Shown one piece after another: positions 46,873-52,195 of a stretch of 64,000 nt of DNA. Within the stretch, counting starts at the first letter, position 1; every line of letters begins with the position of its first letter. Source of the DNA: an uncultured bacterium (GTDB taxonomy: Bacteria; Acidobacteriota; Thermoanaerobaculia; Multivoradales; JAHZIX01); assembly GCA_965368975.1 (NCBI GenBank), contig CBDUPA010000004.1, positions 256,001-320,000 of the forward strand, read 5' to 3'. The notes under the pieces are model-generated. The model saw nothing but the letters and a program-made list of their open reading frames with translations. It made no database searches and was not told the origin of the DNA. The position numbers and the translations under genes are program-made.

Positions 46873-46901
46873 ATGCTATTAGGGCATGGGCGATGTGTCA
46901 A
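46873..46901 (-). promoter_or_regulatory. Sigma70-type promoter of paralog B
   Basis: Minus strand TTGACA, 17 bp, TAGCAT. Confidence 0.7.
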
Positions 46902-46954
46902 GCGCTCGTGGTCGATACAATCCGCGGCAGGAAGGGCCATTTCGAGGAGGATCT

Positions 46955-49507
46955 GTGACCCGAGGCTTCATCTATCAGTCCGGCTACCGCATCGAATACA
47001 TCCAGGGTGCCAAGCGGCCCATTGTCCAGCTCTTCGGCCGTCTGGAGAGCGGTGAGACGTTCCTGGTGCGCGACGATCGCGACGTGCCCACCTTCTACGT
47101 GCGGTGCCAGGACGAGGAACGGGCACGCCGTCTGGGTGCGTCGCCGCTGGCCGCCACCGAGCTGCGCACTCTGGGCGACGGCGACGAGGCGCTCCGTGTC
47201 GAGGTGCCGGTGCCACCGGAAACACCGCCACTGCGCGACCGCTTGCATGGCATGGGAATTCCGACCTGGGAGGCCGACGTGCGCTTCGCCATGCGTCATC
47301 TCATGCAGCGGGGTCTGCGCGGCAGCGCCGAGATCCACGGCGAGGCGCGGCCGGGGCCGTTCGCCGCCGAAGGCGGTGCGCAATTGTTGTTCGTCAATCC
47401 CGACCTGCGCCCCGCCGAGTGGGCGCCCGAGCCGCGTGTGTTGTCTCTCGACATCGAGACCGACCCAGCGCACCGACGTCTGCTCTCGATCGCACTCTAT
47501 GGTTGCGGCGCCGAAGAAGTTTTACTGTTGACACCGCCCGATCAAGGCTTCCGCGACACCGTAGCCTGCCCCGAGGGAGCCATTGCCTGCCGCGACGCGC
47601 GTGAACTGCTGCAATGTTTCGCCCGGCGGGTACGCGAACTCGACCCGGACGTCCTTACCGGCTGGAGTGTCGTCGACTTCGACCTCACTGTGCTCGCCGA
47701 TGCCGCGCAGCACCTGGGGGTGCCGCTGGAACTGGGACGCGCCCCTGGTGCTCTGCAGGTGCGTCCCGGCCGCTCGCGCTTCGAGCCGTCGCAGGTACGC
47801 CTGCCGGGCCGCGTCGTGCTGGATGGTCCGGCCCTGCTCCGCGGTGCCTTCATCCGCATGGAGCGTTACTCACTCGACTTCGTGGCGCGCGAGGTGCTGG
47901 GAGAAGGGAAAGTCTTCGGAGGACAACACGGCAGCAGTCAAGGGGGTGGCCGCCAGCACGTCGACGAGATTCTGCGCACCTTCGAGCACGACCGGGAACG
48001 CTTCGTCGCCTACAACCTCACCGATGCTCGCCTGGTGATCGACATTCTCGAGCGTCTCGGTCTGGTGCGCTTGGCCGTCCAGCGTAGCCTGCTGACCGGC
48101 ATGCCCATGGACCGAGTCTCCAGCTCCGTCGCTGCCTTCGATTTCCTGTACATGACGGCTCTACATCGTCGCGGATGGGTGGCACCTTCGGTGCAAGCGC
48201 CGTTGCCAGTGCACTCCGGTGCGCAGGAATCACCCTGGACTTCGTCGGACGCCGACCCGTCGGAGCAGGAGGCTGACGAGGACTTCGCCGCTATAGATTC
48301 CGCGACCGTGCCCCCGGTACCGACGACGACCACCGTCACCACCGGTGGTTACGTGCTCGAACCTGAGCCGGGTCTCTACCGCTACGTCCTGGTGCTCGAC
48401 TTCCAGAGCCTGTATCCGAGCCTGATCCGTACCTTCCAGATCGATCCCGCGGGTTTCCTGGCGGCTCCGAGTGAACAGGACGATCCTATCGTCGCCCCCA
48501 ACGGTGCCGCCTTCCGCCGTGGCGAAGGCATCCTGCCTGCCCTGCTCGACGACCTGATGCCGCGCCGCCAGGCTGCCAAGCAGGCCGGGGACAAGGTCGC
48601 CAGCCAGGCGATCAAGATCTTGATGAACTCGTTCTACGGGGTCCTCGGTACTTCCTCCTGCCGCTTCCACAATCCCGCCATCGCCAACGCCATCACGAGC
48701 TTCGGCCGCGAGCTGCTGCTGTGGTCCAAGGCGCGGATCGAGGGCTACGGCTACCGTGTACTCTATGGCGATACCGACAGTCTCTTCGTCGCCACCGGTG
48801 TCGAGGAGCCGGACGAGGCGAAGGGAGCCCGCGAAGCTCGCGCCCTCGGTGCCGACATCGCCGCCCGTCTGACCGCCGACTTGGCCGAGCACATCCAGGT
48901 GACTTGGGGTGTGGAGAGCCGGTTGCAGATGGAGTTCGAGCACCTCTACCTGCGCCTGCTGCTGCCCTCCATGCGCGGGTCCAGCGCTGGCGCCCGCAAG
49001 CGCTATGCTGGACTGGTGCAGGACGACGCCTCTGAGATCGGCGAGCCACAGGTCGTGTTCACCGGTATGGAAGTCGTGCGTCGCGACTGGACGGACCTGG
49101 CGCGCGGGGTGCAACGCCAACTCTACGAGCGCCTGTTCCATGATCGCCCCGTGGACGACTACCTGGCCCGTGTGGTCGAGGAGCTGCGGGCCGGCGAGCA
49201 CGACGCCGAGCTGATCTACCGCAAGTCGTTGCGTAAGGATCTGAGCGAGTACGCTGCCTCCAGCCCGCAGGTCGTCGCCGCCCGCAAGCTGCGTCGTAAG
49301 CCGGGTCGTCGCATCGCCTACGTCATCACCAAGCGTGGCCCTGAACCCGTCGACGAGCAGGGGCCGAAGCTGGATATTCCTGGTGACCTCGACCACGAGC
49401 ACTACGTCGAGAAGCAGATTCGGCCTGTCGCCGAGCCGGTGCTCGAACAGTTGGGGCTGGACTTCGCCAAGGTCATCGGCGACGATCGGCAGCTGGAACT
49501 CTTCTAG
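46955..49507 (+). CDS. polB: DNA polymerase II (family B)
   Basis: Exo DIETD and YNLTD; pol DFQSLYPS, KILMNSFYG, YGDTDS, KRYAG; C-terminal clamp-binding QLELF; GAGGAGG SD before GTG. Confidence 0.95.
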   Translation: MTRGFIYQSGYRIEYIQGAKRPIVQLFGRLESGETFLVRDDRDVPTFYVRCQDEERARRLGASPLAATELRTLGDGDEALRVEVPVPPETPPLRDRLHGMGIPTWEADVRFAMRHLMQRGLRGSAEIHGEARPGPFAAEGGAQLLFVNPDLRPAEWAPEPRVLSLDIETDPAHRRLLSIALYGCGAEEVLLLTPPDQGFRDTVACPEGAIACRDARELLQCFARRVRELDPDVLTGWSVVDFDLTVLADAAQHLGVPLELGRAPGALQVRPGRSRFEPSQVRLPGRVVLDGPALLRGAFIRMERYSLDFVAREVLGEGKVFGGQHGSSQGGGRQHVDEILRTFEHDRERFVAYNLTDARLVIDILERLGLVRLAVQRSLLTGMPMDRVSSSVAAFDFLYMTALHRRGWVAPSVQAPLPVHSGAQESPWTSSDADPSEQEADEDFAAIDSATVPPVPTTTTVTTGGYVLEPEPGLYRYVLVLDFQSLYPSLIRTFQIDPAGFLAAPSEQDDPIVAPNGAAFRRGEGILPALLDDLMPRRQAAKQAGDKVASQAIKILMNSFYGVLGTSSCRFHNPAIANAITSFGRELLLWSKARIEGYGYRVLYGDTDSLFVATGVEEPDEAKGAREARALGADIAARLTADLAEHIQVTWGVESRLQMEFEHLYLRLLLPSMRGSSAGARKRYAGLVQDDASEIGEPQVVFTGMEVVRRDWTDLARGVQRQLYERLFHDRPVDDYLARVVEELRAGEHDAELIYRKSLRKDLSEYAASSPQVVAARKLRRKPGRRIAYVITKRGPEPVDEQGPKLDIPGDLDHEHYVEKQIRPVAEPVLEQLGLDFAKVIGDDRQLELF

Positions 49508-49537: not shown

Positions 49538-50401
49538 ATGCCCGGCACCCTCTACCTCGTCGCCACGCCGATCGGCAACCCCGCCGACCTGAGCCCGCGT
49601 GCTCGCTCGATTCTCGACAGCGTCCACGTGATCGCCGCTGAGGACACCCGCATCGCGCGCACGCTCTTCCAACGCACCGGCCTCTCTGCAGCGGGCCAGG
49701 GGCGGGGTGAGCGTTCCTTGTTGAGCTACCACGATCACAACGAAGAAGGCCGCACGCCGCAGCTGCTAGAGCGCTTGGAGAACGGCGACGATATTGCCCT
49801 GATTTCGGATGCCGGCACCCCGCTGGTCAGTGACCCAGGCTTCACCCTGCTACGCGCCGCTTTGGATGCCGGGATCTCTGTCGTTCCCATCCCCGGTCCC
49901 TGCGCTGCCGTCACCGCACTCTCCGTCGCTGGCTTGCCGCCGGACCGCTTTGCTGTCCTCGGCTTCCCACCGCGCAAGGGCGGCAATCGTCGAGCCTGGT
50001 TCGACGAGCTGAAGCAGCTGCCTCTCACGCTCGTCTTCTACGAGTCCCCGCACCGTATCGTGGGAACCTTGGAAGATGCGCTACAGGTCCTCGGCGACCG
50101 GCCAGCCGCGCTCGCGCGCAGTCTGACCAAGGATGACGAGGAGGTTCTGCGTGGCTCGTTGAGCGAGTTGATCGCGCGGTTGCGGCAGCGATTGGAGACG
50201 CAGGAGCGTATCTACGGTGAACTCACCGTCGTGGTGTCTGGCGGTGAGAAGGTGCCGGCCTCGCAGGAGGCGGTGGATCGGGCGATCCGGCGCTTGTTGG
50301 CAGAAGGGCTGAGCGTCAAGCAAGTGCGCGACGTCGTCGCGGACCTGTACGAGTTACCGCGGCGCGAGGTGTATCAGCGAGTGTTGGAACTGCGGGACTG
50401 A
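49538..50401 (+). CDS. rsmI: 16S rRNA C1402 2'-O-methyltransferase
   Basis: LYLVATPIGN, AAEDTR, ISDAGTPLVSDPG, PIPGPCA, FYESPHR. Confidence 0.95.
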   Translation: MPGTLYLVATPIGNPADLSPRARSILDSVHVIAAEDTRIARTLFQRTGLSAAGQGRGERSLLSYHDHNEEGRTPQLLERLENGDDIALISDAGTPLVSDPGFTLLRAALDAGISVVPIPGPCAAVTALSVAGLPPDRFAVLGFPPRKGGNRRAWFDELKQLPLTLVFYESPHRIVGTLEDALQVLGDRPAALARSLTKDDEEVLRGSLSELIARLRQRLETQERIYGELTVVVSGGEKVPASQEAVDRAIRRLLAEGLSVKQVRDVVADLYELPRREVYQRVLELRD

Positions 50402-50531
50402 ACCGCGACGGCTGCTGGGTCTTCGAACCCGTTTGACAGGATGCTGATCCAGTTGCGGGAAGAGGTCGGTCGGGACTGCTGAATCCTCTGTCTGTGCTGT
50501 GAAAGGTCGACAACTGGCAAGGGAGATGGCT

Positions 50532-50562
50532 CGCGGCCTACGCCGACGAAGCGTAGGCCGCG
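50532..50562 (-). terminator. Perfect 12-bp hairpin downstream of the peptide genes
   Basis: CGCGGCCTACGC (50532-50543), 7-nt loop, GCGTAGGCCGCG (50551-50562); no clear U-tract. Confidence 0.6.
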
Positions 50563-50586
50563 CATCCCCGTAGGGAGGGCGAACTG

Positions 50587-50766
50587 TCAGTAGACTGTGC
50601 AGGTCAGGCACAGAGAAATGTTGGTTCTCGGACAGCCTTGGCTGGTTGTGCAGGCTTCGGTGACGATGCCTCCACGGGCGACCTCGAGTTCGGTCGCATC
50701 GAAGTTCTGCAGAGCCGTGATAGTGGTCTTCTTCAGCTGCAGCCTACGGGTGATTCTCTTCTTCAT
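50587..50766 (-). CDS. Lanthipeptide-type RiPP precursor 1 (59 aa)
   Basis: GAGGAG SD; MKKRITRRLQLKKTTITALQNFDATELEVARGG-IVTEACTTSQGCPRTNISLCLTCTVY; core has 4 Cys and 8 Ser/Thr. It is the C-terminal part of track ORF 50587..50970. Confidence 0.85.
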   Translation of the reverse strand: MKKRITRRLQLKKTTITALQNFDATELEVARGGIVTEACTTSQGCPRTNISLCLTCTVY

Positions 50767-50875
50767 CGGTGTCTCCTCTCTGGTTCGGATGGGCTGAACT
50801 TCAACTCGGGGATCTACCGAGTGATCGCTCGGTGTGTAGGAGCGGCAAATGTCTGTTGAATATTTCTGGGGGAAG

Positions 50876-51043
50876 CTACTGAGCGTGGCACAGGATCTCG
50901 CCAATGGAGTTCCCGGTGCCACACTCCATGCCGGCGCAGTTGGTGACAGAGCAGTTGTTCGTGAAGGCACCGCCGCGGGCTAGTTGGAGCATTTTGAGGG
51001 TGTCTTTCTTCAGTTGTAGCTTGGTAAACGCTCTCTTCTTCAT
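50876..51043 (-). CDS. Lanthipeptide-type RiPP precursor 2 (55 aa; absent from the ORF track)
   Basis: GAGGAGGAG SD; manual translation MKKRAFTKLQLKKDTLKMLQLARGG-AFTNNCSVTNCAGMECGTGNSIGEILCHAQ then TAG; core has 4 Cys and 5 Ser/Thr. Confidence 0.85.
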   Translation of the reverse strand: MKKRAFTKLQLKKDTLKMLQLARGGAFTNNCSVTNCAGMECGTGNSIGEILCHAQ

Positions 51044-51148
51044 CAGGGCTCCTCCTCAGGATGGATGAGTTTTCAGTAGAGAATGCAGCATCGCTCAAGG
51101 ATATATCGATGCCTTGGTTTAATGCCGCAATGGCGATGAGAAGGCAGT

Positions 51149-52195
51149 TTAGCATGTAGGAGTGCTTTTCCGCACTCGGCAGACGAAGAAGCCCTCCATT
51201 GCCGCTCCTGGCAGGAGTCGCAGTGCCCGTCGTAGGCGTGGATCGAAGATCTGGCCGTCCCAGCTGCTCAGGCCGCTAGCGACTGAATCCGGTGACGTAG
51301 CCGCGACATCGACCGGCACCTCCTCGACGTCCGCTTCAGGACGATGACGCAGTAGCCGATCCACCGGAGCTTCGTTCTCCTCCGGCGCGAAGGTGCACGT
51401 CGAATACACGAGCACCCCACCTGGCTTCAGCAGGTCGAACGCGACGGTGAGCATCTTGCTCTGGAGACGCGCATTCTTGGTAATGCGGGGAAGGGACCAG
51501 AAGCGCAGGCCCTGCGGATGCCCCAGATCGATGTGGCCTTCGCCGCTGCACTGGGCGTCGAGCAGAATTCGATCGAAGCCCAATGCCGGTAGTTCTGCGG
51601 GATCGAGGTACTTGTCGAGGTATTGCCCCGGATGCTCGGTGATGGTGGCGCAAGTGACGTTGAGCAGTTCTAAGACCTCACGCAATTTTTGTGCGCGTGG
51701 TTTGATGGCATCGTTGGCCCAGATCTGGCAGTCGTTCTCGACGATGGCTGCCAGATGCGCCGTCTTGCCACCGGGAGCGGCACAGACGTCCAGGATAGTG
51801 TCGCCGGGTACGGGTGCGAGTGCGAGTGCAGGGACAAGGCTGGAGGCGACCTGCAGGTAAATCTCGCCCTGTTCGAAGAGGCTGGATCCCGACAGTGCCC
51901 GCTTGTCGCCGTGCAACTGATAGGCATCTGGGCACCAAGGAATGGGCGTGAGTTCGACATCGTTCTGTCGAGCCAAGTGCTGCAGGTCGTCGACGATCTC
52001 TGCCGTGGGTCGAGCCGCCAGCCGGTTGATGCGCACACTGCGCCCCGGTGGTTTGGACAGGCGTGCCTCGCTCTCGCCTTGTGGCAAGCCGAGGATCTGG
52101 CTCAGGCGGTCGAGAAACAGGCGGCGAGGATCACTGGCTTTGGTGCCGCGTGTAGGTCGGCGAGACCTGCTGCGAGAGGAACGGGATGAAGCCAT
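51149..52195 (-). CDS. RsmB/NOP-family RNA m5C methyltransferase (RsmF-like)
   Basis: LDVCAAPGGKT, ILLDAQCSGEG, LVYSTCT..PEENE, EGFF. Confidence 0.92.
   Translation of the reverse strand: MASSRSSRSRSRRPTRGTKASDPRRLFLDRLSQILGLPQGESEARLSKPPGRSVRINRLAARPTAEIVDDLQHLARQNDVELTPIPWCPDAYQLHGDKRALSGSSLFEQGEIYLQVASSLVPALALAPVPGDTILDVCAAPGGKTAHLAAIVENDCQIWANDAIKPRAQKLREVLELLNVTCATITEHPGQYLDKYLDPAELPALGFDRILLDAQCSGEGHIDLGHPQGLRFWSLPRITKNARLQSKMLTVAFDLLKPGGVLVYSTCTFAPEENEAPVDRLLRHRPEADVEEVPVDVAATSPDSVASGLSSWDGQIFDPRLRRALRLLPGAAMEGFFVCRVRKSTPTC

Follow-up and report, generated by a model that had tools for sequence, protein, structure and literature searches.

Two lanthipeptide-type precursor genes of an uncultured acidobacterium belong to a dispersed family that is probably modified in trans by a distant LanB

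Introduction

The window analyzed here is a 64,000-nt stretch of contig C4 (C4:256001-320000) from the genome of an uncultured member of the Acidobacteriota, and it carries two adjacent small genes on the minus strand, pepA and pepB, whose products resemble precursors of lanthipeptides, one group of peptides that are synthesized ribosomally and modified post-translationally (RiPPs). The question raised by this locus is which enzymes, if any, act on these peptides, as no gene for their modification or export lies beside them. The original prediction had proposed a stand-alone cassette modified in trans by a distant synthetase, and a candidate new RiPP family. We find the first proposal to be the best-supported reading, on indirect evidence, and the second to be wrong: pepA and pepB are probably two of about 55 dispersed class I lanthipeptide precursors (LanA) that are modified in trans by a LanB dehydratase encoded on another contig.

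Results and Discussion

A precursor pair remote from modifying enzymes

The open reading frame (ORF) and translation of pepA (50876..51043) define a 55-aa precursor with a leader of aa 1-25 (nt 50969-51043), ending in ARGG, and a core of aa 26-55 (nt 50879-50968) that contains 4 Cys and 5 Ser/Thr. The second ORF, pepB (50587..50766), encodes a 59-aa precursor with a leader of aa 1-33 (nt 50668-50766), also ending in ARGG, and a core of aa 34-59 (nt 50590-50667) with 4 Cys and 8 Ser/Thr; the gene is enclosed by a longer ORF call of 127 aa whose start is a GTG upstream. Each ATG is preceded at a distance of 5 nt by a Shine-Dalgarno sequence on the minus strand (GAGGAGGAG at 51049..51057 for pepA, GAGAGGAGA at 50772..50780 for pepB), and the first 13 bases, GATGAAGAAGAGA, are identical between the two genes. 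Both leaders contain the motif LxLxKx5L (L9, L11, K13, L19). BLASTP aligned the two peptides with 18/43 identities (E 3e-8 for a single comparison); the alignment is confined to the leader and the start of the core, and the cores are unrelated to each other. The coordinates and alignment bear out the earlier description of two genes with common start DNA, common leaders and differing 4-Cys cores. In both genes the G+C content at third codon positions (GC3) was 0.72-0.77, above their overall G+C content of 0.55-0.56, as expected for coding frames in the source genome.

The source genome (G000) is available as a 7.13-Mb assembly of 59 contigs, with 65.4% G+C and 99.3% completeness. No match to Lant_dehydr_N, LANC_like, Peptidase_C39 or SPASM was found along the 363 kb of contig C4, so the lack of such genes near the pair, noted previously for the window, extends to the entire contig. 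In Pfam, neither PepA nor PepB matched any family at E<=10.

The leader belongs to a known class I type

Among NCBIfam models only one matched the two peptides at E<=10, namely NF038153 (lant_leader_L1a, "class I lanthipeptide"). Scoring against a class I precursor model, which had been suggested as a check, thus succeeded for PepB (22.5 bits, E 9.4e-5, cut-off 22) and fell short for PepA (11.7 bits, under the same cut-off). PepA was nevertheless recovered by a leader hidden Markov model (HMM) built from the source genome's own family members (see below), and it matched the family profile A2 with an E value of 4.8e-15, with the caveat that PepA is itself a row of A2. According to sections of Walker et al. 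(2020; PMC7268733), a leader combining LxLxKx5L with a double glycine is the Bacteroidetes type of class I leader, and the same sections agree with the background that the prediction had given on LxLxKx5L motifs, GG leaders and C39 peptidases.

A new RiPP leader family can be ruled out because the leader belongs to the curated NF038153, and because relatives of the source organism encode the same leader directly beside LanB and LanC. The leader type is therefore known and curated, and we regard pepA and pepB as probable class I precursors, a judgment made jointly with that on their modification in trans by LanB.

Fifty-five precursors with one leader and unrelated cores

Scanning the source genome with NF038153 gave 45 matches at E<=10, of which 16 exceeded the cut-off; nearly all of the matches read MKK..KLxLxRETLxxL...GG followed by a Cys/Ser/Thr-rich tail. 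A leader regular expression run on the six-frame translation, as had been proposed for finding further precursors, retrieved 50 small ORFs, compared with 0 in the reversed translation and 0/0/0 in three shuffled ones. The leader HMM built from these ORFs then defined a family of 55 members (E<1e-3) at 37 loci, comprising 24 singles, 9 pairs, 3 triples and 1 quadruple. The members have the features of genuine genes: 54/55 are preceded by an SD-like site within 20 nt, 53/55 start with ATG, and their mean GC3 is 0.75 compared with 0.59 for overall G+C. The motif is followed by GG in 41/55 members, the remainder having mostly GA, AG or AA.

Leader identity was well above the shuffled level (mean pairwise identity of 0.456 versus 0.207 shuffled). 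The equivalent value for the cores (0.217 versus 0.200) is close to that of shuffled sequences, and the cores of the family are therefore unrelated. The Cys content is 0.1% in the leaders and 11.4% in the cores, and 53/55 cores hold at least one Cys together with at least as many Ser/Thr as Cys, the Cys number being odd in 27/55; these composition counts rest on a crude cleavage-site rule. One member (C11:198921) has a core of just 4 residues.

At 33/37 loci, no LanB, LanC or C39 match was found within 30 kb on the same contig. Since the majority of loci are this remote from modifying enzymes, a single distant dehydratase probably acts on all of the approximately 55 precursors. Recurrent neighbors were sought by all-against-all BLASTP of ORFs of at least 120 aa within +/-6 kb of the 37 loci, and the sole recurring types were Ser/Thr kinase fusions (8 loci) and ABC ATPases (6 loci). 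Kinase-domain matches number about 90 genome-wide, and at this density the 0.46 Mb examined should contain about 6; the 8 kinase loci are thus near background, and we see neither kinase enrichment nor a hidden dedicated maturase. As for radical SAM-SPASM maturases, the genome contains 6 SPASM matches, with 0 on C4 and 0 within 25 kb of a family member, and its single YcaO gene, on C27, lies 7.2 kb from one family member without being adjacent to it.

Two individual neighborhoods are recorded here as side observations. A SEFIR/TIR-kinase-FGE-sulfatase fusion (G000:C12:220578-223097) abuts one precursor, and two CHAT-TPR ORFs (G000:C11:199423-205259) lie between two precursor groups. Judged by their domains, these neighbors may be signaling- or defense-like.

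The full-length LanB on contig C13 as the probable partner

The sole full-length LanB of the source genome is a protein of 1159 aa encoded on C13, with matches to Lant_dehydr_N (558 bits) and Lant_dehydr_C (223 bits); its glutamylation and elimination domains can be aligned with those of NisB and MibB. The gene order on C13 is lanB, precursor, precursor, lanC, lanC, and both precursors carry the family leader. Their leaders are among the three nearest to that of PepA (0.60) and to that of PepB (0.57). Thus whereas pepA and pepB are not encoded next to LanB and LanC, as is a feature of LanA, their paralogues on C13 are, as are homologues in the related genomes G007 and G010. In these two relatives the LanB orthologues adjoin LanC and between 1 and 6 precursors that share the leader, placed before or after them, and the core opening of these neighboring precursors resembles that of PepB (ITLRCTTTETC in G007, IVTEACTTSQGC in PepB). 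The LanBs of five relatives were aligned and are 46-54% identical to that of the source genome.

We then compared the distribution of leader and enzyme across 31 genomes of the order, G000 included, using a leader threshold of E<=0.01. The leader was found in 6/31 genomes (G000, G007, G010, G011, G020 and G030), corresponding to 6/16 genomes with any Lant_dehydr_N match versus 0/15 without one. With Lant_dehydr_N matches above 350 bits, a threshold picked after the data had been seen, the figures were 6/7 versus 0/24. As related genomes are not independent, this co-occurrence is an association and not a test. No leader match was obtained in genomes that have LanM-sized LANC_like ORFs and lack a strong LanB (G001, G002, G005, G015 and G029), nor in those with weaker LanB-like matches and no strong LanB.

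A complex of LanB residues 1-850 (alignment of 6 sequences) and PepB (alignment of 13) was modeled in three runs with 3 controls. The score was 0.68, compared with 0.01 for the best of the 3 controls; the score mark used is reached by 58/80 solved complexes and by 2/110 mismatched pairs, a rough calibration since self-made alignments were used. The runs share at least 39% of contacts, with a partner pLDDT (predicted local distance difference test) of at least 43. The confident contacts join the LxLxKx5L stretch of PepB (residues 8-9 and 11-22) to LanB residues 244-268 and 290-316. The model supports binding of the leader to LanB. It resembles the NisB-NisA complex (4wd9) in that a short leader segment is predicted to lie against a strand and helices in the N-terminal part of the dehydratase. 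It differs in the motif, which is FNLD in NisA and LxLxKx5L here, in the low identity of this LanB to NisB (88.5 bits), and in that binding here is modeled.

The same layout in related genomes

A profile of 13 precursors, with rows from G000, G007 and G010 only, gave 53 matches in G000, 36 in G011, 31 in G030, 7 in G007 and 3 in G020, so that the dispersed layout recurs in three members of a single order (53, 36 and 31 matches). The single strong LanB of G011 (C66:135689-139066) is not accompanied by a family precursor within about 4 kb, and its contig contains no LanC; the 36 matches of that genome are spread over many contigs, some of them beside lone LanCs (C35, C115). All 7 matches of G007 lie within two classical clusters. 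In a phylum-wide sample, NF038153 matched (E<=0.001) in 7/201 genomes including G000, and the other six had 1-2 matches each; one of these six, G172, is unpublished, and only this tally rests on it. As 6/200 other genomes sampled from the phylum match, with 1-2 matches each, the precursor expansion is rare and lineage-restricted.

Cyclization, export and the proposed pathway

Besides the two LanC genes next to lanB, a lone LanC gene was found about 200-260 nt behind a precursor at two loci, at C1:561 kb and C13:186 kb. The WCxG and CHG motifs, which we take to be the zinc ligands of LanCs, are intact in 3/4 of these stand-alone LanCs, and a full-length LanB and such LanCs thus coexist in the genome. 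The LanC at G000:C13:186394-187704, behind a family precursor, has lost both motifs, and its precursor has a single Cys.

Three peptidase-containing ABC transporters (PCATs) are encoded in the genome, each with C39, ABC_membrane and ABC_tran domains and a (D/E)CG motif, and each beside an HlyD-family gene. None of them adjoins a family member. With leaders ending in ARGG and C39-ABC exporters in the genome, pepA and pepB have the characteristics of double-glycine peptides handled by PCATs, their cleavage being predicted.

Together these components suggest the following pathway. The leader motif (residues ~8-22) would dock on the N-terminal leader-binding region of the C13 LanB, as in the complex model; LanB, a type of enzyme that uses glutamyl-tRNA, would glutamylate Ser/Thr of the core and then eliminate, giving dehydroalanine and dehydrobutyrine; one of the three LanCs with intact motifs (the two adjoining LanB and the one next to another precursor) would join the four core Cys to these residues in thioether rings; and one of the three unlinked C39-peptidase ABC exporters, with its HlyD partner, would cut after ARGG and export the product.

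The exporters could also suffice. In this alternative, the pair would encode double-glycine peptides that are not lanthipeptides, such as disulfide-bonded bacteriocin-like toxins or signals, merely cut and exported by C39 exporters. The prevalence of GG leaders (41/55), the three intact PCATs unlinked to other cargo, the even number of Cys in both the PepA and PepB cores, and the 33/37 loci remote from LanB, LanC and C39 would all suit such peptides. Against this, the leader was found solely in genomes that also carry a LanB-like gene, and it stands beside LanB and LanC in G000, G007 and G010, nearly all cores (53/55) combine Cys with at least as many Ser/Thr, odd Cys counts are found in about half of the cores (27/55), and the complex model places the leader motif on LanB. 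We consider this alternative improbable, and continue to favor modification in trans by LanB.

Other lanthionine-forming enzymes in the genome

The search for modifying enzymes elsewhere in the genome, also proposed earlier, recovered class I, class II, class III/IV-like and class V-like sets, so that lanthionine-forming enzymes are indeed present. One is a split LanB (G000:C12:116745-121004), in which a Lant_dehydr_C protein of 367 aa is followed by a Lant_dehydr_N protein of 921 aa, with no LanC beside them. The end of a short ORF upstream of it reads MNKSKKPVSLNLELETVES, then continues into a Cys-rich tail, giving a related leader without GG. A LanM of 1166 aa (DUF4135 and LANC_like; G000:C18:296-3796) starts 296 nt from a contig end, and for this reason its precursors may lie on another contig. 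A fusion of a HopA1 domain to LanC (760 aa) beside an APH-family kinase (376 aa), at G000:C1:735538-738955, resembles class V enzymes, and no precursor was identified near it. On G000:C22, a RamC_N-kinase-LanC protein (901 aa) is preceded by a 29-aa ORF that starts MNTVLALQDL and ends CC, which by its sequence is a putative class III-type precursor with a different leader; a further kinase-LanC fusion is also present. No family member was found beside the split LanB, the LanM, the HopA1-LanC fusion, the RamC_N protein or the kinase-LanC fusion on their contigs, nor beside a set of four tandem ORFs (811, 861, 905 and 867 aa; G000:C9:118538-128818) with Lant_dehydr_N only and no elimination domain. 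The latter adjoin an ATP-grasp/CoA-ligase ORF and glycolysis genes, and resemble, we presume, peptide aminoacyl-tRNA ligase (PEARL) sets.

The pair could accordingly be a RiPP cassette that is modified by one of these other enzymes, that is the C12 split LanB, the C18 LanM, the HopA1-LanC/APH set on C1 or a kinase-LanC fusion. All of them exist in the genome. The split LanB could also read family leaders because the leader of its own precursor, of the type L-x-L-x-x-E-T-V, is related, and two precursor loci (C16:153-615 and C14:193893-194192) reach contig ends as the LanM almost does, which makes an adjacency to LanM possible. Yet the LanM, the class V-like set and the kinase-LanC fusions adjoin no family member on their contigs, the class III-like enzyme is accompanied by a precursor of its own whose leader is different, the split-type cluster lacks a LanC alongside, and genomes with LanM-sized ORFs or weaker LanB-like matches but no strong LanB lack the leader. 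Modification by one of these enzymes is in our view unlikely, and the C13 LanB remains the preferred candidate.

Points that weigh against modification in trans by the C13 LanB

Several observations run counter to this preferred reading. The LanB gene lies on a different contig from the pair, with no physical or regulatory link seen between them, and in a crude test restricted to exact 8-mers no 8-mer was common to at least 6 of the 55 upstream regions. The PepA leader scores under the NF038153 cut-off, 14/55 members lack GG, and 8 cores hold only 0-1 Cys. G009 has a strong LanB and no leader match at E<=0.01. In the complex model the peptide's own fold is uncertain (pLDDT 44-46), and the pass may reflect likeness to a known complex, since the NisB-NisA leader structure has been solved (4wd9). 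The genome also contains LanM, class III/IV-like and class V-like enzymes, and the short precursor of the C12 split LanB has a leader, SLNLELETV, related to that of the family. Lastly, the draft assembly may conceal some precursor/enzyme adjacencies.

Two further absences count against it and at the same time favor another explanation, namely that the pair consists of decaying or silent relics of the precursor expansion, without a product. Among 5.8 billion proteins, searched by shared 5-residue words at lengths of 32-104 aa, PepB found its own copy alone, and five genomes of the same taxonomic family gave no leader match; the family member with the 4-residue core would fit such decay as well. 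However, both genes have an intact ATG, a strong Shine-Dalgarno sequence, a complete GG leader and a full-length core, a hairpin follows them, and their elevated GC3 is that of coding frames. We judge it very improbable that they are relics, and precursors modified in trans by LanB are still the reading that we prefer.

Comparison with known systems

The Gram-negative class I lanthipeptides with GG leaders (pinensins, Ped15.1/15.2, thalassomonasins and viridisins) share with pepA and pepB the LxLxKx5L-type leader with GG and a Cys/Ser/Thr-rich core, and they likewise have a separate LanB and LanC and C39 exporters, as does the source genome (sections of Walker et al., 2020, PMC7268733, and of PMC9680876). 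As far as these sections go, the known systems have 1-3 or few precursors in a LanB/LanC operon, whereas here there are about 55 copies with 33/37 loci remote from such genes. The host also differs, being neither a member of the Bacteroidota nor of the Gammaproteobacteria.

The prochlorosins and SyncA of marine picocyanobacteria (enzymes ProcM and SyncM, class II) are similar in having tens of scattered precursors with a conserved leader and unrelated cores, one enzyme and GG cleavage (PMC11251773, PMC10783134 and PMC9872173), service by one enzyme and cleavage being inferred for the family described here. The comparison with prochlorosins that the original prediction had drawn fits, since the pair belongs to a dispersed 55-member family with conserved leaders and unrelated cores. 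Core divergence between tandem duplicates such as pepA and pepB, and the unlinked position of the enzymes, also match the prochlorosin logic. The differences are nonetheless clear. Prochlorosins depend on LanM, a fused enzyme whose zinc site is Cys-Cys-Cys, and have leaders of the Nif11 family, in contrast to the class I leader, the separate LanB and the several LanCs found here. The pair does not belong to the prochlorosin type, defined by a Nif11/NHLP leader and dependence on LanM, as NF038153 is the only leader model matched and no member lies beside LanM. Nor does the presence of LanM track the leader among the relatives, and some of the LanCs are paired with single precursors, unlike in the ProcM system.

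There is perhaps an even chance that a class I equivalent of the prochlorosin system has arisen in this lineage, comprising a single stand-alone LanB, one conserved leader, 30-55 hypervariable scattered precursors and several LanCs, some of them in modules of a precursor plus its own LanC. Natural combinatorial lanthipeptide libraries, in which one enzyme serves tens of unrelated cores, have so far been described for the class II enzymes ProcM and SyncM of picocyanobacteria (PMC11251773, PMC10783134 and PMC9872173). A dispersed class I precursor library was not found described in the literature searched, which did not extend to supplements, Caetano et al. (2020) or Bothwell et al. (2021), so that an earlier notice there is possible; sections of PMC7268733, PMC12328550, PMC9680876, PMC10352776, PMC11251773 and PMC13500794 mention none.

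A dispersed class I library would be of real interest to RiPP research. If it exists, a separate LanB and LanC would also be capable of broad substrate tolerance, a new leader/LanB pair would become available for peptide engineering, and the question would be raised of how several LanCs share 55 substrates. For genome mining, cluster tools confined to the surroundings of LanB and LanC would report 2-4 of the 55 precursors.

Surroundings of the pair

Behind the pair lies a G+C-rich hairpin (50522..50569, minus strand) with a perfect inner stem of 13 bp (50532-50562). It had been noted before and is real: its folding energy is -39.8 kcal/mol (z -4.15), and 0/200 shuffled sequences folded equally well. 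It is situated between the convergent genes pepB and rsmI and has no U-tract, and is likely to be a terminator of the kind that lacks one. Scans for consensus promoters and consensus terminators gave 0 sites each, and an Rfam search of 50300-51400 returned two chance-level matches only (E 0.22 and 0.37), far under gathering scores.

The flanking genes are two rRNA methylases, as originally described. Upstream of pepA, on the same strand and separated by a 105-nt gap, is an RsmB/F-family rRNA methyltransferase gene (51149..52195, minus strand; Pfam Methyltr_RsmB-F, 150.7 bits), and an rsmI-like methyltransferase gene (49538..50401, plus strand; Pfam TP_methylase and RsmI_C) converges with the pair. 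The best matches of the RsmB/F-like protein in the five genomes of the same taxonomic family are probably paralogues, because they show only 37-39% identity and lie in frames of 489-613 aa.

In a soil metagenome run, two 151-nt contigs covered 50822-51107, the pepA region, at >=99% identity; the run may come from the source sample or contain a strain that is nearly identical, and the match is silent on expression and conservation. A marine metagenome run gave short unrelated pieces only for the region of the pair. Further along the window, an ORF of 873 aa (46886-49507, plus strand) has a YGDTDS motif in its translation, from which it looks like a family-B DNA polymerase.

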